From: an uncultured Planctomycetota bacterium
GTDB lineage: Bacteria; Planctomycetota; Planctomycetia; Isosphaerales; Isosphaeraceae
Reading direction: 5' to 3'
DNA: 64,000 nucleotides
NCBI GenBank assembly: GCA_963823665.1
Contig: CAWGMQ010000002.1
Location: 128,001 to 192,000, forward strand
Positions 20,887 to 39,512 of this stretch are shown here, one piece after another. Numbering within the stretch: position 1 is the first letter of the stretch; each line of letters begins with the position of its first letter. A program made the position numbers and the translations under genes. Under the pieces are notes generated by a model that was not told the origin of the DNA, searched no databases, and was given only the letters and a program-made list of their open reading frames with translations.

Positions 20887-20949
20887 CCCTCCGTCCTCCG
20901 CACGCCACCCTCCGTCCTCCGCCCTCCGTCCTCCGCCCTCCGCCCTCCG
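20887..20949. repeat. Heptamer tandem repeat (YCCTCCG) x9, one degenerate unit
   Basis: ccctccg tcctccg cacgcca ccctccg tcctccg ccctccg tcctccg ccctccg ccctccg. Confidence 0.9.
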
Positions 20950-20951
20950 CT

Positions 20952-21077
20952 TGGGTTCGTTCGCGCAATCTGGCCACGTTGTCAAGTCCCATTTCGTTCT
21001 CGTTTTGTGATTCAATCACAAGTCGAGCCTCAACTTATGCATTCCCAGCCACGTGAGCCCGCTGGGTTCGTTCGCGC
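20952..21077. repeat. Two exact copies of 15-mer TGGGTTCGTTCGCGC
   Basis: Copies at 20952-20966 and 21063-21077. Confidence 0.85.
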
Positions 21078-21663
21078 GTTTTTCGCCGCCGAACAATCGG
21101 GTACAACCCTTCGCATTCAGAAAACCCCGAGTCCAAGTTCGCGTAGCCTGCTCGGAAACAGGGCCACCACCCAAGCGTGATCGATCGAGAAGGTCCATTC
21201 GGCGATACCGTGCTGGGTGCGACTCGTGTAGTTGACGACGAAGATGAGGACGAGGAGAAGGAGGTGGTTCTCATTGCCCCGAGCCGACTCCGGTGTCAGC
21301 GATCGAGACTCAGATAGGTAGATTATATCATGAGCCTCGTGGATCGGTTTATGTTTTCGATCAGGAAATCTGGATTTCTTCTGCGGGTCAGAGCGAATAG
21401 AACGATCATCACGATCGCAACGACTGAACAGGGAAGATTTGCGCACCGATTCTGCCAGAAACAGGCGTTTCCGAATGCTTGATAAGCGACAGCCGAGCTC
21501 GGCCTGATATTGCCAGGTGATACCCGTTCACCGCCTTCGGGGATGCTTGACCAAGCTGGACCGTTGCAATCTAATTGCACGCTAGGTGACCAGAACCCGG
21601 TCCAAAGCGGTTGGGCTCGCCGCTTATCTGCGAACTGTCGATTGATTCCAGGGAGCGGCAGTC

Positions 21664-22911: not shown

Positions 22912-23041
22912 CGTGACGTACTCGCGGAGGAAAACAGGGGCGCAATTGGTTTGTCTAGGGGAGGGAAACACAGGGCCTGATAGACAAAGCCCCCAGGTGC
23001 TAGTCTCGCTGTTCTTGTCATGACAGCGCCTGCTCACATAA

Positions 23042-23128
23042 CTGAAGGCTTCCGTCAATACGAATCGCGTCCCGGCTTTCGTCCCTGAAGGCTTCCGTCA
23101 AATACGAATCGCGTCCCGGTTTCCGTCC
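23042..23128. repeat. Diverged tandem duplication (43 + 44 bp)
   Basis: ctgaaggcttccgtcaatacgaatcgcgtcccggctttcgtcc then ctgaaggcttccgtcaaatacgaatcgcgtcccggtttccgtcc (1 indel, 2 substitutions). Confidence 0.9.
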
Positions 23129-23711: not shown

Positions 23712-25593
23712 TCACGGCGTTAGCAGAGCAACGTCTGTTCTGCGCTTGGTGAGCTGTCGACTCGTCCGGGGCCGTCGCAATGCAGCTTCCATGCGATCGA
23801 ACCAAGCAACGAGTGCCAGGGTGACATTCAGCCGGCTGCCGGCCAGGGTGTCGCCGATCCCCATTGCATGCTCCCGCATTGCGTGAATCAGCTTCCCGGT
23901 GTCGATCACTCCGAGGTCGTTGAGTCTGGTACCCAGGACCATCGCCTCCAGGCTGGGCAGATTGCGCGAGGCCGCACCAGTAGATGTCATTGAAGCCTCG
24001 CTTGTCGCGCCTCGCTCGGATCGGTTCGGGCACGATGCCGCGCATTGCCTCTCGGAGGACCGGCTTGCGAGTCCCGAGTGATTCGCGGACAGCCCGAGGC
24101 ACACGCAGGCAGAACTCGACGAGCCGCGGGTCGAGGAACGGATGCGAGTTCGCCATCCCCAACGGCGCCGCGAGGTGCCAGGATGACCAGTTGCCGGAGC
24201 ACGTCTGGATCGCGCAGAGGTCCGCGGACCGCTCGGCGGAAGGGGTGTATAGGCTGCGCGCGAAGTCCAGGCCCTTCTCCCAGAGGTCGTGGTCCCGGGC
24301 GAACTCGCGAGCGATCCAGAGGGGAACTGCCGTCGCACTCAGCGCCGGCCAACCGCCTCGACCGCGGCGAAGCCACGTCCCGATGCCGTCGCGCAGGCTG
24401 GGCGGGATATTGGGCCCGAGCCCGCGGCGCCACCAGATGTCCGCCAGGCTCCGGTTGGTCGCCCGCGCCCATCGCCGCGCCTCGGCCAGCGACTCGATCC
24501 AACGACCGCGACGGACGAGGCCGGCAATCTGGAGGGAGCGCCCATCCAGGAAGTCGTCCGCCCCCGTGCCCGTGAGTATGGTAGCCGCGCCCGCCCGGTG
24601 CGCCTCATCGATCAGGAGTCGCTCCATCCCCATCCGGAAGAGTCCGGCATACGGCTCGTCGTGCTCGGGAATCCCCTCGCCAAACCAGTCGAAGTCGAGC
24701 GCCTCGTCAGCGTCAATGAACCGGCCGTCGATGAGTCCGCCCTGGTTGACGACCATCTCGGCGAACGCCCGTTCCCCCGCCAGGTGGGTATTCCGGTAGA
24801 CGAGCGACAGCGTCGTCAAGCGTCGCATGCCGCCGCTCCCATCAAGGCATCGCCGCGCCTGGCAGACCACCGACGAACTGTCCATCCCGCCCGAGAGGTG
24901 CGCCGCGACGGAACCGCGTGCGACCCGCTCGTCGACCGCGCGACGGAGGAGGTCCTCGCAGCGCGCGCCGGCTTCGACCAGGGTGATCGGTTCCTGGCGC
25001 TCAACGAGACCTGCCCAGTCCCAGGTCGTCGTTCGTTGGATGCACGGGCCCGGACCCAACGTAACGAGGGTTCCGGCCGGAACGCGCTGGACCCCTTCGA
25101 AAGGAGTCGTCTCGCCCGGCAATTCGGTGAACGCGTTTGATGCCATAAGGAAGCGCGAGAAGTACTCCAGGTTGTAGGATCGGCGCCCGCCCAATGACGT
25201 GATGTGGGTGCTCACGGCGACGCCCGGGCCGTCGATCGTCCAGTAAAGGGGCCAAGCGCCGAACGGGTCGCGCAGCGCCAGCAATCGCCGCCGCCGGGGA
25301 TCCCAGACCGCGAGGGAGAACTCACCCTCCAGCCTCGCGAGGCCGGCGGCACCGAGCTGGCGATGGACGGCCAGCGCGAACCCCGCGTCGGTTGCCGAGG
25401 TCAGGCTCTCGCGGACCGACGCCGGCAATCCCCGCATGGCTTCGTCGCGGTAGTGCAACCGACCGATCAAGATGGCTGCAGTCGCCAGGACGGGATCCTC
25501 GGCGAACGTGACGAATGATACCGCCGGCGTTCCGATCAAGCGGAATTCCGCGGGCATTCCCGGAAGACAAACAACCTCGAATCCTGGTTTCAT
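23712..25593 (-). CDS. Lasso peptide cyclase (C protein, asparagine-synthetase-like), frameshift near 23965
   Basis: LEGEFSL.VWD, RDPFG..PLY, AHLSGGMDSSSV ATP-PPase motif, LTGTGAD, HPFLDPRLVEF, K.VLREAMRG..PE.IR.R..K; no N-terminal glutaminase Cys; C-terminus continues in the adjacent frame (RNLPSLEAMV...LALVAWFD). Confidence 0.88.
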
Positions 25594-25786: not shown

Positions 25787-26560
25787 TCAGCGTGACCCGA
25801 AGTAATGGGCCACCGGCTGGTAGATCGCGCAGTTTTCCGGCTCATCGGTGACCACGCGTCCGCCGCACTCAACCCAGGCATGTGCCTCGAACGGATGCCG
25901 ACGGATGCCGACCTTCAGGACCGCCGGCAGCCCGTGGACCGCTCGAAGGATCTGGTAGCCCACGAGGGCTCGTTCCTTGCAGACCATCGGCAGGAGGACC
26001 CGGCGTGACGCCGCGTCGCGGACAAGCTGATCGACCGCGTCGATCACATCATCCCAGCCTGCGGGAGGGGACGGGCCCCGGTCGGCACGGTGCCAGCGTG
26101 TCCACAGCCGGACCGTGGTGGCCCAGCCGAGCAGCCGGATGCTGAACCAGGCGAGGACCATCAGCGATGCTACCGTAAGGCGGCCCGGAGCAGTGGTCCG
26201 TCCATGTCCGCGGCGACCTCGCGGTTTCTCGCTTTCCCGCGTGGCGGCGACCGGACCCCGATGCTTCACCAGCAGCCTTTTGCGGGCTAACTCGCCCACC
26301 AGCGTGGTGAGATCGGTGCGGATGCGGGCGTGGTCCACGCCGTAGAAGTCGGCAGCTCGATCCACCGCCACGTCGAATCCATCGTCGAGCACGAGCGTCA
26401 ACAGCTTCGTCCCGACCGGGTCGAGGCCATAGAACCGGCCTCGATTCAGGTTCAGCAGGCGAGCGATGCCGTCCTGGACGTCCAGGACGACGTCATTGCC
26501 CAGGCGGAGGCAACGTTCGCCCCGTCCCCGATCTGTGACCGCCTGATCCGTTCCCGCCAT
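25787..26560 (-). CDS. Fused lasso peptide B protein: PqqD-like RRE (B1) + transglutaminase-like leader peptidase (B2)
   Basis: RRE LLNLNRGRFYGLDPVG...YGVD...DL..LV.EL..KRLL; peptidase VCKERAL...LKVGIRRHPFEAHAWVE..G.VVTD (Cys-His-Asp). Confidence 0.92.
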   Translation of the reverse strand: MAGTDQAVTDRGRGERCLRLGNDVVLDVQDGIARLLNLNRGRFYGLDPVGTKLLTLVLDDGFDVAVDRAADFYGVDHARIRTDLTTLVGELARKRLLVKHRGPVAATRESEKPRGRRGHGRTTAPGRLTVASLMVLAWFSIRLLGWATTVRLWTRWHRADRGPSPPAGWDDVIDAVDQLVRDAASRRVLLPMVCKERALVGYQILRAVHGLPAVLKVGIRRHPFEAHAWVECGGRVVTDEPENCAIYQPVAHYFGSR

Positions 26561-26636: not shown

Positions 26637-26840
26637 TCAAAAGTCGAAGAACCAACGCCCCGGGCCATCATCGAGGCGCCAGCCCGGGCCGCCCTGAAGC
26701 CGGTCCAACGAGCCGAGCACGTAGAGTTGGGGCACCCGATAGGCCGTGGTGAAGCACGGCACCGGCGCGGCCGACTCATCCGCACCGGGAGACTCGCCGT
26801 CTCCGAGAAATCCGTGATACCGTAGCCGCTCTGAGAACAT
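26637..26840 (-). CDS. Lasso precursor peptide A2 (67 aa); predicted core GGPGWRLDDGPGRWFFDF
   Basis: GAGGAG RBS; leader motif YRVPQLYVLGSLDRLQ (YxxPxLxxxG); directly upstream of the B gene. Confidence 0.87.
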   Translation of the reverse strand: MFSERLRYHGFLGDGESPGADESAAPVPCFTTAYRVPQLYVLGSLDRLQGGPGWRLDDGPGRWFFDF

Positions 26841-26935: not shown

Positions 26936-27133
26936 TCAGAACCCGTTGAAGTACCAGCGGCTGGGGCCGTCGTACTCCGAACCGCTCAGGTAGCCCTGGA
27001 GCTTTTCAAGCGAGCCAAGATCGAAGACGGCGGGTTTGCCGTACGCATGGCACGGTGTAGGGCCAGCCGGAGCCGCGGTACGCGGTCTCTCGGGATCGCC
27101 CATCGGATTATAGATGCAGACCAATCGATTCAT
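26936..27133 (-). CDS. Lasso precursor peptide A1 (65 aa); predicted core GYLSGSEYDGPSRWYFNGF
   Basis: AAGGAAAGGAAG purine-rich RBS; leader motif YGKPAVFDLGSLEKLQ; core homologous to A2. Confidence 0.87.
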   Translation of the reverse strand: MNRLVCIYNPMGDPERPRTAAPAGPTPCHAYGKPAVFDLGSLEKLQGYLSGSEYDGPSRWYFNGF

Positions 27134-27206
27134 CGTTTCTTCCTTTCCTTCGTGCTGGGTGTGTGTGTGTGAAAACGATCTGCCTCTGTCGCCTGTCATC
27201 TCGGGA

Positions 27207-27260
27207 TCACTTTTTCCCGAGGATGATCTCAAGTGCATTGCCGATGATGATGTCGATCAT
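27207..27260 (-). CDS. Putative 17-aa micropeptide MIDIIIGNALEIILGKK
   Basis: GAGGAGG RBS 7 nt before ATG; same strand, just upstream of precursor A1; resembles the neighbouring micro-ORF. Confidence 0.55.
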   Translation of the reverse strand: MIDIIIGNALEIILGKK

Positions 27261-27343
27261 CTCATGGCCTCCTCGTGAACTTGTTGCGGTTCCAGTTCTT
27301 CGGCGACACCGCCCCCGAGGCGGGGCCGCCCGCACCATCGGCG

Positions 27344-27397
27344 TTACTTGCCGATGCTGATCTTGATCACGGCATCGAAATCGAACTCCTCGATCAC
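27344..27397 (-). CDS. Putative 17-aa micropeptide MIEEFDFDAVIKISIGK
   Basis: GTG start after purine-rich AGGAAAGAAGAGAG; high GC3 codon usage; followed by a GC hairpin (~27302-27330). Confidence 0.5.
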   Translation of the reverse strand: MIEEFDFDAVIKISIGK

Positions 27398-27500: not shown

Positions 27501-27902
27501 CACAACGCCTTCCGAGGCAGATCGGTCGAGGAGAGGGTCGCCTTGTCGAACCCGATCTCCACGTGAACGCCTCTTTGGCGGTTGTCGCGCGGAGCCCCAT
27601 CCCTGCGCTTCTTCGAGTTTCGACCCCGAGGCTGCGCCAATTGACGAGCTTGCCGGGCCGGCGCACCGACCCGGCCGCGATCGAGCAATCCCGCTCGATC
27701 CGCGATTACTTGCCGACGTTCCTGACAACGGCCTTCACGGCTTCCGTGACGACGACCTGAATCAAACCGCCAAGGCAACTCATGGCTTTTCTCCTCGATT
27801 GTGCGGCAGCCGAGGAAGCCGACGCCGGCTTCCATCCTGCCCGTTGACATGCGAGAATTGCGCGAGCTGCCCTCAGCCCCGCTGAAACGAATCGGCAAAA
27901 AA

Positions 27903-28486
27903 ATGGGCGACGAACGACCGGATGACATAACTAGGCTCCTCAGCGAGGCTCGCGCCGGCGCTGGAAGGTGCGCACGAGGAGCTCGTGCGGGCCATCTACG
28001 GCGAGCTACGGAACATCGCGCAAGGGTGGATGCATCGCGAGCGAGCCGACCACACGCTTCAGCCGACCGCGCTGGTCAACGAGGCGTTCTGCCGCCTGCT
28101 GGAGAAAGAATCGCTGGTCAACGCCCCCAATCGCGCGTACATGTTCGCTGCGGCCGCGGAGGCGATGCGCCGCGTCCTGGTCGAGCATGCCCGCGCGCGT
28201 CGGACCAGGAAGCGGGGCGGGAACCGCGTGCGCGTCCCCCTGGACCAGGTCCTCGCCGGTTTCGACGAGCAAGGCGTGGATGTGATCGCCCTGCACGAAG
28301 CGCTCGAGGAACTGGCCAAGGCGTACCCACGGCAAAGCCAGGTCGTCACGTTCCGGTTCTTCGGCGGTCTCCACGGTGCCCGAGGTCGCGGAGGCGTTGC
28401 AACCGAAAGTTTCGGTCACGACGGTTGAGAGCGACTGGCGGTTCGCGAGGGCTTGATTGAAAGATCGGCTGGGGGCCGTGCCATGA
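27903..28486 (+). pseudogene. ECF43-like (kinase-associated) ECF sigma factor with two frameshifts (~27960, ~28370) and a premature TGA (28454-28456)
   Basis: DITRLL...IYGELRNIA...ERADHTLQPTALVNEAFCRL...MRRVLVEHAR.R...KRGG...FRFFGGL|TVPEVAEAL...SVTTVESDWRFARA*LKDRL; stop overlaps the kinase start (ATGA). Confidence 0.85.
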
Positions 28487-31400
28487 CGAATCCCGAACCG
28501 AATCAGCGGGTCTACGCCATCTTCGACCAGGTGCTTCAGTGCGACCCGTCCGACCGGCCGGCCCTGCTCGACGAATTGTGCGCCGACGATCACGAACTGC
28601 ACGCCGAAGTCGAGCGGCTCCTTGGCGCCGACGAGCGGGCCAGCCAAGAGGACTTCCTGGCGCCACCGAAACAACCAGCAGGCGACGCCGACCACCACCC
28701 GCGGCCACCCCTGAGGCTGCACGGGCTGGAGGCGCACGTCCGCTGCCCACAATGCCAGAACCCGATCGGGCTGGCGAACTTGTCTGTCGCCGAGAACGAG
28801 GTGGTTTGCCCCTCCTGCGGATCGAGCTTCCAGTTGGAGCGGGAGTCGACCGTCCCTTGGAGCCTGCGAAAGGGCCAACGGTGGCTCGGCCGATTCGAGC
28901 TGATCAAGCCTGCCGGTCTCGGGGCCTTTGGCACGGTGTACGAAGCTCGCGACCACCAGCTCGCCCGCACGGTGGCCATCAAGGTTCCCCGGATCGGCAA
29001 TCTAGCCACTGAGGATGATCGCGAACGGTTTCTGCGGGAGGGTCGCAGCGTTGCCCAGTTGCGGCACGAGTTCATCGTGGCGGTCCACGAGGTGGGGGAG
29101 CAAGAGGGGGTGCCCTACCTGGTCAGCGACTTCGTGAAGGGGCTGTCACTGTCGGACTGGCTGACCGGTCGCCGGCTGGCCCCGAACGAAGCCGCCCGTC
29201 TCATTGCCGAGATCGCCCGTGCCCTCCAGTACGCCCACGAGCGGGGAGTGATCCACCGCGACGTCAAGCCGTCAAATATCATGTTGGACGACCAACTGAA
29301 GCCGCACTTGATGGACTTTGGGCTGGCCAAGCGCGACGTCGGCGAAATCACCATGACGATTGAGGGCGACGTGCTGGGAACCCCGGCGTACATGAGCCCT
29401 GAGCAGGCGCAGGGGCAAGGCCACAAAGTCGATGGGCGCAGCGACGTCTATAGCCTGGGAGTCGTCCTCTACCAGCTGCTGACCGACGAATTGCCGTTTC
29501 GCGGCAATCCGCGGATGTTGCTGTACCAGGTGCTCAACGACGAGCCCAAACCCCCGCGTAAGATCAACGATCGCATCCCGCGCGATCTCGAGACAATGTG
29601 CCTGAAGGCTATGGCCAAGGAGCCGACACGCCGGTACTCTACTGCGGCCGCGCTTGCCGAGGATTTAGGGCGGTTCTTGAATGGGGAGCCGATCCAAGCT
29701 CGGCCGGTGGGACAGCTCGAACGGTCGGTCAAATGGCTCCGGCGACGGCCCGCGCTGGCGTCCGCCATCGGAGTTAGCCTGGCGGCAGTCGTCGCCCTCC
29801 TCGCACTCGGTTCCTGGTTTACCCTGAGCTTACAGGGAATCAACCAAGGCCTAAGCACGGCGAACGCCGAGATCACGCAGCGGCGGATGGAAACAGAGTC
29901 GGCCGCCAAGAAAACTCGAGAAAGCCTGGTCCGGCTCTCCAGCTCGACGGGCGACCACGCCGCCGAGGACGGTGACTGGTGGACCGCTCTGCTGTGGTAT
30001 CACCGCGCCTGGAAGCTCGATCAGGGTCGCGGCGAGGCCGGTGGCCATCGACAGCGGATCGCGGCGCTCCTCGCACGCTGCCCGCACCTTTTGGGAATCT
30101 GCTTCCATAAGGACGCGGTACTCGAGGCGGAGTTCACACCATCCGGCGAACGAATCGCGACGGTCACCGAGAATGCGCGTGCTTACCTGTGGGAGCCTCG
30201 TCGGAATCAGTGCCTGGCCGAATTGCGCCACGAAGGAGCCGTAGTTCATGTTACGATCGATCCGGCCGGCCAGCGGATTGCCACGGCCGGGAAGGACGGC
30301 TGCGTTCGATTGTGGAACGCCACCGACGGCAAACCGCTCCTCTCTCTGCATCACCCTGCTGCGGTCAATTGGGCCGCATTCAGCGCCGACGGGACGTACT
30401 TGGCCACCGCTTGCACCGATGGTTTCGTCCGGCTCTGGCAGGCCGACACAGGCGCTGTCGGCTCCGTCAAGATCGCGACGGCCGGCGCAGCGCTGTTCGT
30501 TGTCTTCAGCCCGGATAGCTCCCGGTTCTTGACGGTCGATGACTCGGAACATGCGCGGGTCTGGAACGCAGCAACCGGTGAGGCGCAAAGTCCACCTTTA
30601 CCGCACCGAATGCAGCCCGGGAGTCTGGGTCCTGTCGCCAAGGTGCTTCCCTCGTTCAGTCCGGACGGTCGCTGGGTCGTAACGGTTTATAATCACGGCC
30701 GCTCGGACGGCGTGACCGCGTATGAAAAAAGCTCACTGCATTTCTGGTAAGCAGGAACAGAGTTCAGCAGCGTGCCACGGGGCAAAGCTCTCAGCCAGGC
30801 CGTTTTCAGTCCGGACAGCAAACAGGTCCTCACATTTGGATCAACCCGCACGGTCTGGCTGCTGAACGTGCCTGGAGGCCCCGACGCTGGGGAACGGTAT
30901 TTTGAAACTCCGCGCGAGGTGCAACGCGGTTGTTTTTCTCCGGACGGCCGGGTGATCGCCACGGCGAGTAGTGGAGGATGGGTCCAATTCTGGGATCGCT
31001 CGCGCTTGCTTCCCATCGGCGCCACCACGAGCGACAAGCCCGGCATGAGTTTCCGTCACGTGGCATCGCTCACACAACTCGTGTTCAGCCCGGACGGCAG
31101 CTATGTGTTGTCGGCCGGCCACGATGGAACCGCACGATTGTGGCAACTGCCGCCCAGTCAGTTTCGTGGTCGATTTTATGAATTCGACTGCGGCCGAGCC
31201 CACCTGAGTGGGTCGTGGCCGGATCTCGCCACGGGTCTCAGCGTTGCTTATAGTCCTGACGGGAAGCGAGAGATTCGTTTCGGCCCGCCGGGCAAGACAA
31301 CCATCCAAGAGCGCACCCGTAGCCGGGCGGTTGTTACCTTGAATACCGAGGGCGCTGTGCTCGGGGCTGAGTTCAGCGCGGACGGGCAAAGGGTGGCGAC

Positions 31401-32985
31401 CATCGCCATGAACGGGGTGAGGATCTGGTCTGCCCAGTCTGGAGAGGCGATCGGCCCTCGGTTCCCGGTGAATGGCCGCGTGGACTTGAGCCTCGATGGC
31501 CAAGGCCATCGTCTTGCGGCGGCTGATATAAACGGTGCCGTCTACACCTGGGAGGCGGATACGGGAAGAACGCTGGTTGAGCCGTTTCTGGCCCCCTCTG
31601 ACGCAAGCAAAGATCTCGTTCGCGTGAGCGCGGCCGCTCGGCCGAAAGGACCCTCGACCGCCCAGCAATCGGTCATCTCGCTGAGCGAGAACGGCGGACT
31701 ACTTGCCGCTGCGACTAGGTTCAAGACCGGAGCTCATCCAACTGCGGCACTCATCGACGTCGAGACCGGTTCGACACGCTTCGTCGTCACGAAGACGAAT
31801 GCGGTCATTCAGTCTCTCAAACTGAGCCGCGATGGCAAGCACTTACTCATCGCGTCCTCCGACACGACGGCGCGGGTCTACGACAGCGCGACCGGCGAGC
31901 CGGCCGGACCGCCCTTGCGACATCCCAACTTCGTCCGTTCTGCGACATTCAGTTGCGACGGACGGTATGTCGCAACGGCCGATGCGCTGCAAAACGTCCG
32001 CGTCTGGGACGGCACGACCGGCGACCTCCTGGTACCTCCCCTGCCGGCAAGATCGGGCGCTGAGCCAAATCGTGTTTGGTTCAGCCGGGACGATCGGCGC
32101 GTCGTTCTGCGATCGAACGCCGGCAGTCTCATTCAGTGGGATCTTCCGGCTCTCGGCGCTGCGATGTTTCCCTCGACCGAATTGATGGATCTTCTTGTCG
32201 GCCTAACGATCGATGAGACGGAGGGCATCGCGTTCGTGGACATGAACACCTTCCGCGACGCACCGGAACATTTCGGCGAGATTTGGTTGTACTGGATCGA
32301 TCACGGCTTGCTCCAAACGCCGGCACGCGTCGGCGATAACCGTTCCGTGGGCATGCCGGCCCCGGAGCCGAAAGGTCGCGAGTTAGCGGGCTGGGGATTG
32401 GCCATCGACCCGGACAACGATTGCGAAATCCGTGCTGAGCAGAATGTTCTGTCCTTGCGGGTGCCCGGCCGTTTGCACGACGTGTCTCCCGATGGAAGCC
32501 TGGCCAATGCACCGCGCGTCCTGCGCTCAGTGCAAGGTGATTTCGCTTTCACAGTTAAGGTCGTCGCCAAATTCCAACCTGGCCCAACGTCTGTTAATCC
32601 TCGGATATTATCGCAGAACAGGGCCGGCATCCTTGTCTGGAACAATTCGGAAAACTTCATTCGGCTAGATCGGGTCGCCATTTTTCGCGATGGAAAAACC
32701 TTCGGCGGCGTCCTCCTGAGTTCGGTGACCGATGGCCAGCCTCCGCCCCTCCTCGGCGAAACAGCTCAGCACGAAACGTACTATGTGCGAGTTCATCGCA
32801 AGGGAAACGTCATTATCGGTGCGTTCTCCAAGGACGGCACCAAATGGACGGAGCTCAAGCCGATCGAAATTAGCTGGCCGGCAACGCTGAAAGTTGGGCT
32901 CGACGCGGCGAACTCCAGTTCCGAGCCGTTTTCGGTGGAATTCAAAGAGGCGGATCTCCAGGCCAACGGCGCTGCATCGAAGTAG
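28483..32985 (+). CDS. Ser/Thr kinase with zinc ribbon, TM helix, WD40 repeats and C-terminal ConA/DUF1349-like domain; in-frame TAA at 30748-30750
   Basis: CPQC...CPSC; GLGAFGTV, VAIK, HRDVKPSN, DFG, GTPAYMSPEQ; ORFs 28453..30750 and 30772..32985 share one frame and WD40 repeats continue across the stop; C-terminal NAPRVLRSVQGDF...AGILVW...FSKDGTKW. Confidence 0.85.
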
Positions 32986-34719: not shown

Positions 34720-37700
34720 TCAAAGCCCGGCCACGGCGCTCTTCCGCCGAAGCTGAAGTACTTTGGCGTCAGGATCAACAACGACTTTCACCGGCTCGAA
34801 GTGACTCTTGATCTCAACCTTCTTCGACTCACCCTTCCCCAACACAACCGTCGCACGTGCTTCCTTGTAATCAGCCGAAGCCGATCCATCCTTGTTGAAC
34901 CGTTCCCCGCGCGTCGCAGCGATCTCAACCGGCATCTCCCCGCTTCCGGCATTCTCCACCCGCACGCTCACGTCCCAGCTTTCCCCCCGCGCCGTTTTCT
35001 TCGCGTCGTGCAACACATATTCAGGCACCACCACTTCATGGAACCACTGATGAGTAAAGGCGTCGAACGCGGCGGGATCAGCGGCGAACGGCCGCATCGA
35101 GACCAGAAAATCTTGAAGGACGGGATGATCCGTATTGGCTTGATACGTCTTGATGAACGCCCGCATGCCGGCCAGGGCCTTGTCGCGTCCCATCTGGTTG
35201 AGGAGCATCCAGAAGACCCAGCCTCCCTTGTCGTAAGTGACAGTGGTGTCGCCAGGGCGCTCGCCGGTGATCTTCACCAGCGGGAGCTCTGAGTCAGACT
35301 GCCGGCTCCGAGTATAACTCGCCTCGAGCCGCTTGCAAAAATCAATGCGGGAGTTCAATCCCTTCGCCTGCTCAACCAGCAGAATGGTCGAGAAATGCGC
35401 AGTGCCTTCCGAGAGGATGTTGCCCCCAGGTCCCTTGCCCGGCGAAAGCAGGTTGCCCCACCACTGGTGCGCCGCCTCATGCGACGTGATCTCGAACGCA
35501 GCGTGGTTCTCCGGCGTGCTCGAAGTCAAGAAGCCGATACCCTCGGAGAACGTGATATTCGTGGGAAATCCCTGCGCATAGCCGGCAAGGTTGGGAAACT
35601 CGCTGAGCTTCAGCTCGCGCCACGGAAACGGGTAAAACCACTCGGAACAATAACGACGCGCCGCGTCGAGCGCCTCGCGCATCTCGGCGATGTTGTAAGG
35701 ATGCCCGCGGTAGTAGTAAACGGCTGTCCCTTCGCCGCGCTCCACCTGCCATCGTCCCGCAATCACGTTGAAGAAGCTCACCGGAAAGTCGCTCTCCCAG
35801 ACCACCGTGCGGCGGCCATCTTTCACATCTTCGGCAGTCTTCGTGCCCACTGAATTGATGGTGAAATCTTCCGGCCCCGTGACCGTGATCTTCGTCGTAT
35901 AAGGCGCTCTGGCCCCCATGAAGGAATCCGTCTGCCCCTTGTAGAAGTCGTCACGATATTCCTTGGGATCTTGACGGTTCTCGTCGTCGATCCCGACCGA
36001 GTCTTGAAACCCGAGCAAGGGTACGATGCTCGGGCGAAAGCTCGTCAAAACAACCGATGAAGGGAGGATGAACTCCGGAGCACCGCCACCACGCTTGCTG
36101 ATCCCCCGCGGAAAAGTCCCCTCGTGTTCGAACCCGATCTCCACTTTCTGGCCGGGCGCGAACGAGCCCCCCGGTGGAATGAACACGTATAAATGTGAGC
36201 GGTCGATCGGTGACACCGGTTCACCCCCCATCGTCCACGAAAGCTTCTCCCAGTGTAGACCACCCGTCAGCAAGATTTCGTCAAGCGGCTTCTCGCCGAG
36301 ATTGACCAGCAGATATTTGCCCTTTGCATGGTATCGATGCTTTTCCGGAAAGAGGTCCAGCTCGAGCGTCACGTGCTGAATATCAGGCACCCTGGCATCG
36401 CGATACGTGGCGAGGTTCTTCCGCCAGTAATCCTTCGCCTGCTTCTCTGCCGAGCCTCCTTCGTAGCCCCAGCCGACCAGAAGAGCGAGCCAGATGCCCG
36501 CCGCCAGCGGCACAATGGCCCACGGCAACAGCCTGAGCACAGTGCGGAAGAGCGAAACCGGCCGAAGGCGGTGGATGAATCGTGTCGCATCAACTTCGCG
36601 CCAACGCGCAAACCGCAGTGTCATCGCCACGAAGAGGACCGTCACGCCCACTGCAAGCACGCGGCTCAAGACAATCGCAATGCGATCCAGCTCCAGCGTA
36701 CTGATGTCGCTCGCGTGTACCGCACTCCAGAGCGGCCAGTTCCCCACCCAGTTGATCCGGTCGGTCATGAGGCGATAACCCGTGAAGTAGAGCAAAGGCA
36801 GCGCGAGCGCATACGTCGTGTACCGATTCTGAGTGATCGTGTGAACCAAAGTCACAAAGCCGGTCCACACCAGAATCGAGGGAGCGAGCAACAACCCCCA
36901 GTAGAGCAAGAACGGCCGGAGCTGGACGCCGACTTTTTGCTGGATCGCGAGCGCGATCAACCCCGCCACGAAAAGCGCGATCACGACGACGATCGCAACC
37001 ACCGCCAGTGCGATGCTCTTCCCCAGCAAGAACGCGCCGCTGCGAACGGGCGTGGCAAACGCGATCGCCGCCAGCCGCGTCGACCGCTCCCGCTCGATCG
37101 CCTCGACTGTGTAAAACAGCAGAAGAAGGCAGAGGCACGTGATCAGCGTGCCCATCGTGCCCACGGCGAAACGAACCGGCGTGATGAGCAGCGACGTGTC
37201 GAGAAAGCTCACTTCGATGAGCGCCGTGGCAACCGTCTGCAGCAAGATCAGCGGAATGAACAGATAAAGCCCTGGGCTAGAGCGCAGCTCGATAAGCTCG
37301 ATTCTCGCCACGTGCCAGGCACCCGCCAGCAAGCCCGGGCGCGCTGACCTCATCCCCAGCGATTCCAGTGCTGCCGCCCGCTTGACAACAACCGGTAATG
37401 GATTGGGCTCCGCCGCCAAAATAGCGTGCTTCCTGGTTCGTTGCGAGACAACTCCGCGCAGTCGTCTCGTGAAATGCCAGCGGCCCAGAGCCACGGCCAG
37501 TAAGCCCAGTCCAATGAAGACCGCACGGCTGATCAGGAAACCCCGATCGAGCGGGATCGCCGCCGTGTTGTAGAAGTTTACCCCGCGGTCCACCTTCAGC
37601 CAGGTCTCGTTGAGCCAGCGAAACCCCGCTGAGTCGATCATCATGAGTGCGTAATCGACCCGCGGGTCAAGCCAGCTCGGCGACCACTCCCACAGGAAGA

Positions 37701-38322
37701 AGCCGTTAAGAATCACGATCGCCACCGGCAGCAGAAACACAAGTACAGGCCGGCGCGACCACTCGCCGATTGCAAACGATACACCTGCCAGGAAAACGAT
37801 CGTCGGTACCGAAAAGACGAGCGCAGGTTTGAGGTAATTAAGAAGGTGGAACGAACCGCGAAATTCCTGCGCCTCAGCGTTGGGCATCAGGTGGAAGAAG
37901 AAAGCGCTCGCCGCCAGGTGAATGCACAGGATGCAGAGACATCCTGTCAGCACGGCACCGAACTTCGCCCAGATATATTCGCGCGGGCGAAGCGCCGTCG
38001 CATGGAGCATGTCCCCCAGTCGCCACTCCTCGTCCTGGATGATCGCCATGCCTGCGGCGACGGAGATGAAAAAGGCATAAAACATCGTCGTGAAGATCGC
38101 AAGCTGCATCGCTATGGCAAATTCGGAGGTGATATACGCCTTCGTGCCCCCAACCGAAGCGTCGCCCGAGACAATCCGCACGTTTCCGCCCGAAAGTCCC
38201 CAGGCGGTAAGCGCAAGGACAAGCGCCCACACGGCAAAAAGCGGGCGTCGCGAATGATAGACCAGATCGCCCAGGAACACGGTCCGAAAACGCGACCACG
38301 CCCGCCATGGTCTCCCCATCAT
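34720..38322 (-). CDS. ABC-2 type permease (two membrane domains) fused to an M1-family aminopeptidase
   Basis: Multi-TM N-terminal half; YAQGFP, HEAAHQWWGN...LSEG, TYDKGGWVFWML. Confidence 0.92.
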   Translation of the reverse strand: MMGRPWRAWSRFRTVFLGDLVYHSRRPLFAVWALVLALTAWGLSGGNVRIVSGDASVGGTKAYITSEFAIAMQLAIFTTMFYAFFISVAAGMAIIQDEEWRLGDMLHATALRPREYIWAKFGAVLTGCLCILCIHLAASAFFFHLMPNAEAQEFRGSFHLLNYLKPALVFSVPTIVFLAGVSFAIGEWSRRPVLVFLLPVAIVILNGFFLWEWSPSWLDPRVDYALMMIDSAGFRWLNETWLKVDRGVNFYNTAAIPLDRGFLISRAVFIGLGLLAVALGRWHFTRRLRGVVSQRTRKHAILAAEPNPLPVVVKRAAALESLGMRSARPGLLAGAWHVARIELIELRSSPGLYLFIPLILLQTVATALIEVSFLDTSLLITPVRFAVGTMGTLITCLCLLLLFYTVEAIERERSTRLAAIAFATPVRSGAFLLGKSIALAVVAIVVVIALFVAGLIALAIQQKVGVQLRPFLLYWGLLLAPSILVWTGFVTLVHTITQNRYTTYALALPLLYFTGYRLMTDRINWVGNWPLWSAVHASDISTLELDRIAIVLSRVLAVGVTVLFVAMTLRFARWREVDATRFIHRLRPVSLFRTVLRLLPWAIVPLAAGIWLALLVGWGYEGGSAEKQAKDYWRKNLATYRDARVPDIQHVTLELDLFPEKHRYHAKGKYLLVNLGEKPLDEILLTGGLHWEKLSWTMGGEPVSPIDRSHLYVFIPPGGSFAPGQKVEIGFEHEGTFPRGISKRGGGAPEFILPSSVVLTSFRPSIVPLLGFQDSVGIDDENRQDPKEYRDDFYKGQTDSFMGARAPYTTKITVTGPEDFTINSVGTKTAEDVKDGRRTVVWESDFPVSFFNVIAGRWQVERGEGTAVYYYRGHPYNIAEMREALDAARRYCSEWFYPFPWRELKLSEFPNLAGYAQGFPTNITFSEGIGFLTSSTPENHAAFEITSHEAAHQWWGNLLSPGKGPGGNILSEGTAHFSTILLVEQAKGLNSRIDFCKRLEASYTRSRQSDSELPLVKITGERPGDTTVTYDKGGWVFWMLLNQMGRDKALAGMRAFIKTYQANTDHPVLQDFLVSMRPFAADPAAFDAFTHQWFHEVVVPEYVLHDAKKTARGESWDVSVRVENAGSGEMPVEIAATRGERFNKDGSASADYKEARATVVLGKGESKKVEIKSHFEPVKVVVDPDAKVLQLRRKSAVAGL

Positions 38323-39281
38323 GCCTCACCTCGTTCACCGTGGCCGTGGACGAGCGCCGCACCGTTGGCCAACTCGCGAACCGCAGGTGCACTCGTACCG
38401 GGAAGACTACCGGTTCTGATCGCGACCAGGTACGCATCTTCGAGTGTCGGCGCAATCGGAGCGAACCCGCCAGGCGGCGTACCATTGGGTTCATAGACCC
38501 GCACCCGGTTCCGCCCTTCGACCAGATAAGCCTGGGTCACGCATCGCGCAGGATCGGCCTCGAGCTGCTCGTACTGTGCAGCGGGTATCGAGCCTTCGTA
38601 AATCGTTCCCTCGATCGCCTCGCGGGCCCCGCTTGGCGTCGTGTTGGCCACCAGCCGGCCACTCCTGATCACGGCAAAGCGCGGGCAAAGCACAGCCACA
38701 TCCTCCACGATGTGGGTGGAGAGCAGCACGATCCGGTCCGCGGCCAGCTCGGAGAGCAACCGGTAAAACCGCAGTCGCTCTTCGGGGTCGAGCCCCGCCG
38801 TTGGCTCGTCGACGATCATCAACCGAGGGTTGCCGGCAATGGCTTGCGCGATCCCCAGCCGCTGTCGCATCCCGCCTGAGTACGTCTTGACCTTGCGCCA
38901 GCCTGCAAACGAAAGGTTCACCCGCTCCAGCAAGTCGCGACACAACGCGCGCAGGCCCTGAGGCGCACTCACACCCTTGAGCCGCAACAGGTATTCGAGC
39001 ATTTTCTCGCCGGTCAGGTGCGGAAAAAAACCGAAGTCCTGCGGAAGGTAGCCCAGAACCTCCCAGATACGCTCGGGACGCTTGAGCATCGACTCGCCGT
39101 CGAGAGTCGCAAGGCCCGAGCTCGATTCCAGCAGGCCCGCCAGAATCCTCATCAATGTCGTCTTGCCCGCACCATTGGGCCCCAGCAGACCGAACATCCC
39201 GTTCGGCACGTCCAGATCGATCCCGGCAAGCGCCGTGACGGGGCCGGGGTAGATCTTCACCAGATCACGTATGACGAGCAT
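38319..39281 (-). CDS. ABC transporter ATP-binding protein
   Basis: GPNGAGKTT, YSGGMRQR, IVDEPTAGLD, STH; overlaps the permease start (ATGA). Confidence 0.95.
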   Translation of the reverse strand: MLVIRDLVKIYPGPVTALAGIDLDVPNGMFGLLGPNGAGKTTLMRILAGLLESSSGLATLDGESMLKRPERIWEVLGYLPQDFGFFPHLTGEKMLEYLLRLKGVSAPQGLRALCRDLLERVNLSFAGWRKVKTYSGGMRQRLGIAQAIAGNPRLMIVDEPTAGLDPEERLRFYRLLSELAADRIVLLSTHIVEDVAVLCPRFAVIRSGRLVANTTPSGAREAIEGTIYEGSIPAAQYEQLEADPARCVTQAYLVEGRNRVRVYEPNGTPPGGFAPIAPTLEDAYLVAIRTGSLPGTSAPAVRELANGAALVHGHGERGEA

Positions 39282-39512
39282 TCTTTCTCCTTGACTAGCG
39301 ACCACTCGACAATTCGTCGCCGTTAGACAAAGATTTCAGGCACAGGACCGAACATCCTACCGAATACCAACGCGGGAACTGAACACCAGTTCCATAACTG
39401 GTTCGATTCCCGGGTTGTAATCAAGATGAGGCGGGCCGGCCTGCTTTTTGCGGGGGGCTAGGGGCTGACAACCCGAAAACAACAATTTCAATCGAGTTGA
39501 GACGAGCATCCG

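Follow-up and report, generated by a model that had tools for sequence, protein, structure and literature searches.

Three Gly-Lys-tailed micro-ORFs, a possible array of unmodified peptides, ahead of a planctomycete lasso peptide cluster

The window considered here is the whole 64-kb stretch of planctomycete DNA that was analysed, and all positions refer to it. Its minus strand carries a lasso peptide cluster with two precursor genes, A1 (26936..27133, 65 aa) and A2 (26637..26840, 67 aa), a gene in which B1 (RRE/PqqD) and B2 (peptidase) are fused (25787..26560; PF05402 and PF13471, with NF033537 above cut-off), and the lasso cyclase gene C (23720..25593; recognised by PF00733 and tblastn, with NF033535 below cut-off). 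The cyclase is full length and has an N-terminal GATase domain. The frame shift in it near 23966 (23963-23968) probably stems from faulty assembly: a short-read contig carries two extra letters at 23963, and this points to residual errors in the assembly. The canonical lasso leader, as given in passages of PMC12070363, has Y(-17), P(-14), L(-12) and T(-2). Both precursors obey the Y(-17)/P(-14) part of this rule, with Gln replacing Thr at -2, and pipelines requiring Thr(-2) could overlook such genes. The register of the A1 core follows from the same Y/P/L/T rule (PMC12070363, in part), and the predicted core begins with Tyr and has Asp8; that of A2 begins with Gly and has Asp7/Asp8. Several related lasso precursors likewise have Gln at -2. 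A1 and A2 are both called as proteins in a public collection of 15 billion proteins. Together with the fused B and C they belong to the fused B1-B2 lasso clusters of cyanobacteria and planctomycetes, the best loci of which have precursors with a common Y-x-x-P...LG(S/T/N)L leader in which position -2 is often Gln. The closest named relatives of B are cyanobacterial and the closest overall are metagenomic, at no more than about 50% identity (38-50% to the best matches).

Ahead of the precursors, on the same strand, lie three leaderless micro-ORFs in tandem: ORF0 (27706..27783, 25 aa, MSCLGGLIQVVVTEAVKAVVRNVGK), ORF1 (27344..27397, 17 aa, MIEEFDFDAVIKISIGK, with a GTG start) and ORF2 (27207..27260, 17 aa, MIDIIIGNALEIILGKK). 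The original prediction had named two 17-aa ORFs heading the lasso operon; both are present in the sequence where it placed them on the minus strand, and a third member, ORF0, had been overlooked. The spacing is 310 nt between ORF0 and ORF1 and 83 nt between ORF1 and ORF2. All three peptides finish with Gly-Lys or Gly-Lys-Lys (VGK in ORF0). The Y(-17)/P(-14)/L(-12)/T(-2) leader is absent from each of them, as had been claimed for the 17-aa pair, and where a lasso ring would close ORF1 has Asp8 (counting Met), a place taken by Gln or Asn in ORF0 and ORF2. The Shine-Dalgarno (SD) signals differ in strength: that of ORF2 is strong (GGAGG, -11.8 kcal/mol for anti-SD pairing), that of ORF0 reaches -8.9 kcal/mol, and that of ORF1 is weak (-4.3 kcal/mol, within a purine run of 12/12), compared with -6.3 and -10.8 for the true lasso precursors. 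The claim that both 17-aa ORFs have an RBS-like tract of their own thus stands for ORF2, and is qualified for ORF1 by the GTG start and the weak SD. ORF2 occurs without differences in a short-read contig from a public soil run (covering 27159-27309), and ORF0 is identical in another such contig (covering 27683-27909). ORF1 lies outside every short-read piece listed. ORF0 is absent from the 15-billion-protein collection.

The coding signal of the three can be set against that of chance ORFs. Codon adaptation (CAI) is 0.70 for ORF0, 0.93 for ORF1 and 0.77 for ORF2, where real-gene windows give 0.72±0.10 and non-genic short ORFs 0.60±0.11. GC3 is 0.88 in ORF1 and 0.75 in ORF2, in keeping with the GC3-rich codons originally reported for this pair. 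Ranked by codon log-odds among the 311 non-genic ORFs of 12-30 codons in the 64-kb window (226 stops), ORF1 comes first and ORF2 sixth. A joint filter, a codon score of at least 4 bits plus an SD or purine tract, with thresholds fixed after inspection of the data, is passed by 4 of the 311, namely the three micro-ORFs and one fragment of precursor A2 that is read in its frame; GK or GKK endings are found only at the stops of the three micro-ORFs. The codon, RBS and hairpin statistics therefore back the original view of real small coding units, leaderless and ahead of the lasso genes, and judged on these sequence features ORF0, ORF1 and ORF2 are probably translated.

Each small gene, the three micro-ORFs as well as A1 and A2, has its own 3' hairpin. 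After the stop of ORF0 there are two tandem GC-rich hairpins (27650..27704, minus strand) without a U-tract, and no terminator-like site was found there. A hairpin at 27299..27358 (minus strand) holds the Lys and stop codons of ORF1 in its loop and is followed by a second GC hairpin; a GC hairpin like those behind the true precursors had been predicted here and is present. The Lys and stop codons of ORF2 likewise lie in a hairpin loop (27194..27226, minus strand). A perfect 7-bp stem closes each of these two stop-bearing loops, an arrangement found at 11 of the 2600 stop-type triplets of the window. A U-tract terminator was sought after all three micro-ORFs and none was found, and, with an antisense RNA antitoxin in mind, no Rfam family came near its gathering score. 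No minus-strand promoter for the micro-ORFs or lasso genes was found, either as a sigma-70-type site or as a copy of the extracytoplasmic function (ECF) sigma factor motif described below.

The micro-ORFs are related at the DNA level in a way that is not simply end to end. The C-terminal half of ORF1 and the N-terminal half of ORF2 match at 19/22 nt in a shifted register (codon-shuffle p=0.003), and ORF0 matches ORF1 at 13/15 nt in the best window (p=0.005); in windows of 22 nt ORF0 has no significant match to the other two. Within ORF2 an 8-codon unit is present twice, in imperfect copies. From the 19/22-nt and 13/15-nt matches it seems that an 8-codon unit was duplicated, in a register differing from that of the end-to-end alignment. 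Across the 16.5-Mb genome the 12-mer RTCGGCAAGTAA has two copies, one at ORF0 and one at ORF1 (the reversed control has 3), and a 12-nt RBS region is common to ORF0 and lasso precursor A2. Protein alignment of ORF1 with ORF2 gives p=0.29 (local) and p=0.07 (global), and the pairs with ORF0 give p=0.03-0.08. The paralogy proposed for the 17-aa pair is consequently borne out by the DNA repeat, while the protein similarity falls within what composition alone provides. Between ORF0 and ORF1, at 27568-27515, there is a further copy of the GTTCACG-GGAG repeat that precedes ORF2; its RBS-like part (27568-27557) is degenerate and lacks a start, and 14 coding-like codons follow in the frame of ORF1. 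This is possibly a decayed fourth unit. A longer, 72-aa version of ORF1 beginning at 27562 is ruled out by the codon score of the extension (-6.8 bits).

On the plus strand, divergent from the micro-ORFs, are genes for an ECF sigma factor of the TIGR02999 type (27903..28480, end approximate) and a Ser/Thr kinase with WD40 repeats and DUF1349 (28483..32985). In the assembly the ECF gene is frameshifted near both ends (at 27958 and about 28340) and the kinase gene has an in-frame stop near 30748. Genome-wide there are 43 matches to ECF factors of this type. A two-box motif found upstream of this ECF subgroup, modelled from 25 other loci, lies at 27849..27880 (plus strand), oriented to the ECF gene; it scores highest in the whole window, has no minus-strand copy, and is a candidate autoregulated ECF promoter. 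The locus resembles the kinase-associated ECF groups (ECF43, ECF59-62, ECF217), which according to passages of PMC7826278 combine an ECF with a Ser/Thr kinase and have no anti-sigma factor; here too an ECF and a Ser/Thr kinase stand without one. Those same passages name no peptide ligand. In two other planctomycete lasso clusters (L035:6090-7128 and L041:133-1124) a divergent PF07638 ECF gene immediately precedes the precursor, with a kinase confirmed in L035 and a kinase-like start in L041. Of 47 lasso loci tested, 5 have kinase matches, one of which is weak, and such matches also lie in L036, L045 and L142. The ECFs of L035 and L041 have no tblastn match to the ECF of the window, suggesting, as far as sequence comparison goes, that lasso clusters have been paired repeatedly with different ECF groups. 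There are no such ORFs between ECF gene and precursor in L035 or L041, nor on the divergent side of 58 related ECF loci, one of which is 70% identical. As the ECF-kinase-lasso neighbourhood recurs without the micro-ORFs, they look like an insertion rather than a needed ligand, and these absences weaken the earlier suggestion that they are ligands for the WD40 kinase/ECF pair.

The region from 20.6 to 34.7 kb of the window is a genomic island whose place in the sister genome is taken by other genes, between flanks that are 86-87% identical. Non-coding repeats at its left end (20890-21540 and 22970-23090) have many copies in this genome and in the sister genome. The ABC ATPase and the ABC-2 permease fused to an M1 aminopeptidase domain (34720-39305) belong to the flank kept in the sister genome, and no exporter or immunity gene is seen within the island. 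Homologues of B are sparse, occurring in 3 of 120 family genomes and, in a shallow first look, in 1 of 400 genomes of the class. Among 160 B loci collected, a screen for short hydrophobic ORFs led by an RBS covered the best 31 that have upstream sequence, and nothing resembling the micro-ORFs was found upstream of the B genes; this search, which had been set as a check of the original prediction, thus returned no homologue. In the 1.94 Mb of collected loci no short ORF ending hydrophobic-GK(K), judged by eye, lies in that position, and GK micro-ORFs are missing from three lasso clusters of the same family. Micro-ORFs occur in none of the related fused B1-B2 clusters examined, and the literature searched on lasso clusters gave no description of accessory micro-ORFs. 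The suggestion that lasso clusters include them as a component is not supported: none was found at the 31 closest B loci, although the nearest B there is only about 50% identical, or in the three family clusters. With related clusters lacking them, the micro-ORFs are likely a local add-on and not a new part of lasso biosynthesis.

Wider searches gave the same picture. The DNA of the locus has only short matches in its own genome and 60 relatives, and the 16 examined with their context are unrelated. A profile of the three peptides, weak because it missed ORF1 itself, found no short-ORF match in 120 family genomes, the sister genome and five lasso-cluster genomes; its best E-values were 0.29-0.3, nearly all within long frames. 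Motif scans, for which positive controls worked in both family and phylum, were run more than once. In the 120 family genomes ORF1 is the only RBS-led micro-ORF among 57 matches. A second family scan (about 109 matches, 30 fetched and the rest judged by eye) gave no true relative, and across 400 phylum genomes no short ORF ending in GK was seen in the 30 examined of about 80 other matches. The matches examined fall at the ends of long genes or in antisense frames, or else encode peptides unlike these; the look-alikes L460, L463, L469 and L515, from the second family scan and a third with 10 matches, were rejected as C-termini of long genes or antisense frames (L469 and L515 by eye). Viral contigs have one match, outside any short ORF, plasmids have chance matches only, and Pfam, NCBIfam, PDB sequences, the ESM Atlas and Rfam offer nothing usable for the micro-ORFs. 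Such searches would miss diverged peptides, and the nearest lasso clusters reached are only about 50% identical in B, so that 'orphan' here means not found in the DNA searched, where the array is a feature of one genome. In the absence of a homologue there is no selection signal.

The peptides have net charges of +2 (ORF0), -2 (ORF1) and 0 (ORF2) and consist to 29-47% of Ile, Leu and Val. Their mean Eisenberg hydrophobicity is 0.25-0.42, with charged or polar residues throughout, and on these grounds a type I toxin with a hydrophobic helix of transmembrane length is rejected. The helical moment is significant for ORF0 (p=0.037) and not for ORF1 (p=0.94) or ORF2 (p=0.76); strand periodicity is not significant in ORF1 (p=0.085) and lacking in ORF2. 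These values do not support the beta-hairpin-like fold that had been proposed for the pair. A fragment or mimic of CsrA, of which the genome holds ten paralogues, was also considered and rejected, with a profile of 25 CsrA sequences giving p=0.33 (ORF2), 0.17 (ORF1) and 0.80 (ORF0).

Several known peptide systems share parts of this arrangement. Multi-peptide leaderless bacteriocins (aureocin A70, garvicin KS, cereucins), as described in passages of PMC6131525, are encoded by three or four tandem small genes, several of them first found as unannotated genes, for peptides of 26-34 aa and charge +2 to +5, accompanied by exporter and immunity genes. ORF0-2 fit the layout of tandem leaderless hydrophobic small genes needing no modifying enzyme (PMC6131525, in part). 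In contrast to those bacteriocins, however, they are 25, 17 and 17 aa long with charges of +2, -2 and 0, and the island has no visible exporter or immunity gene, the permease at 34720-39305 being part of the shared flank (PMC6131525, in part). The phenol-soluble modulins (PSMs) of Staphylococcus and the operon-leader small ORFs LspU/LspD offer a second likeness, namely unmodified peptides of about 20 aa from small ORFs at an operon head (passages of PMC12607899). PSMs are amphipathic helices that are exported by Pmt/AbcA, bind membranes and aggregate, whereas here a significant helical moment is seen in ORF0 alone and no Pmt/AbcA-type exporter is seen in the island (PMC12607899, in part). By analogy the micro-ORF array resembles PSM and leaderless-bacteriocin arrays in layout, not as a member of either.

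The explanation we prefer, and hold tentatively, is a lineage-specific array of unmodified, leaderless hydrophobic peptides that would act by membrane binding or aggregation. The array would have been born by local duplication in the host's lineage. Its three ORFs, presumably co-transcribed with the lasso genes, would be translated into short Ile/Val-rich peptides made alongside the lasso precursors, and the 3' hairpins may protect the mRNA of each small cistron and so make the peptides abundant. Bypassing the lasso enzymes, the products would bind membranes or aggregate, ORF0 perhaps as an amphipathic helix and ORF1 and ORF2 as acidic-to-basic hydrophobic strands. The codon and RBS signals, the 3' hairpins, the DNA repeats, the hydrophobic composition and the tandem layout speak for this reading; speaking against it are the missing homologues, the sizes and charges, the want of a helical moment in ORF1 and ORF2, the weak kinship of the proteins, the filter thresholds fixed after inspection, and the failure to find an exporter or immunity gene in the island or a minus-strand promoter.

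Rather unlikely, though the strongest of the rivals to this array, is that these are young or decaying duplicates of an RBS-ORF-hairpin unit with no selected function and weak or no translation. They are orphans in all searches and lie in an island absent at the syntenic site of the sister, the start-less, degenerate RBS-like repeat at 27568-27557 would be a relic of the same process, and the adjoining ECF and kinase genes have frame breaks in the assembly. At least one nearby frame break, however, is an assembly error, and near-optimal codons (CAI 0.93 in ORF1), three intact start/stop pairs and perfect stems over two of the stops are hard to maintain without selection. The micro-ORFs, being short, rich in branched-chain residues and followed by hairpins, resemble amino-acid attenuator leaders, and ribosomes reaching the stops of ORF1 and ORF2 would open the stems around them; the act of translation rather than the product might then tune the lasso mRNA, by Ile/Val attenuation or by stabilisation. 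This is unlikely, because no U-tract terminator stands behind any micro-ORF, the predicted lasso cores are not rich in Ile or Val, and modelled ribosome occupancy produces no switch: the start regions that follow are nearly unaffected (A1 stays 0.59-0.67 unpaired, and when a ribosome occupies ORF1 that of ORF2 is 0.30-0.31 unpaired), and the alternative pairing of the ORF1 arm with ORF2 has a modelled probability of at most 0.005. An amino-acid attenuator in the strict sense is rejected on the missing terminator and switch.

Streptococcal SHP/Rgg pheromones control RaS-RiPP operons, and the position of the micro-ORFs between a regulator and a RiPP operon invites comparison. In the passages of PMC3679016 the small hydrophobic peptide gene is divergent from rgg, and its product has a basic export part and a mature C-terminus of acidic residue, Ile and Gly. 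Here too a small hydrophobic peptide gene diverges from a regulator beside a RiPP operon, with an acidic residue, an Ile run and Gly, and ORF2 has two acidic-hydrophobic-Gly stretches like the mature SHP DIIIIVGG (PMC3679016, in part). The recurrence of a divergent ECF beside planctomycete lasso clusters likewise favours a role as signals or feedback modulators of the WD40 kinase-ECF pair. Yet the N-terminal part of the micro-ORFs is acidic and the tail is Lys, with neither a basic N-terminal export segment nor a C-terminal mature peptide of SHP form (Table 3 of PMC3679016, seen in part), the adjacent regulator is an ECF with a Ser/Thr kinase and no Rgg is seen in the locus, the motif of the ECF is missing from the minus strand, and the 58 ECF loci and two divergent-ECF lasso clusters are without such ORFs; we regard a signalling role as slightly less probable still than a cis-acting one. 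A part in lasso biosynthesis itself, whether as substrates without a leader or as decoys or chaperones that serve the RRE, the peptidase or the cyclase, is the least probable, and very much so. The micro-ORFs do lie directly upstream of the precursors on the same strand, ORF1 has its Asp at position 8, and leaderless lasso precursors exist, as in triculamin (PMC12070363, in part). Against this, ORF0 and ORF2 have no Asp or Glu at ring positions 7-9, none of the three has a leader motif, and the 31 and 3 related clusters lack them. Triculamin-type clusters have no B1/B2, an N-truncated cyclase and a PGDG core plus follower, while both B domains and a full-length cyclase with its GATase domain are present here and no micro-ORF contains PGDG, so membership of that type is rejected (PMC12070363, in part).

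Returning to the favoured array of unmodified peptides, a more specific and rather improbable form of the proposal is that the three Gly-Lys-tailed micropeptides are either membrane-permeabilising or surfactant partners of the lasso peptides, or reporters of operon output to the kinase-ECF pair. If so, an ECF system activated by a kinase would have a peptide ligand, and lasso clusters a layer of accessory peptides new to the literature searched on them. The signals of planctomycete ECF-linked kinases are unnamed in the passages of PMC7826278, and a peptide ligand would open that question. If translated, the micro-ORFs would be orphan small proteins that fall under the limits of gene callers, ride on a RiPP operon and are cheap to synthesise.

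Small ORFs of another kind stand ahead of a same-family lasso cluster (L034:7481-8089), which is preceded by two RBS-led small ORFs. They encode 89 and 84 aa, their starts resemble signal peptides, and one is Cys/His-rich. It may be more generally the case that genes for small proteins stand before lasso precursors.
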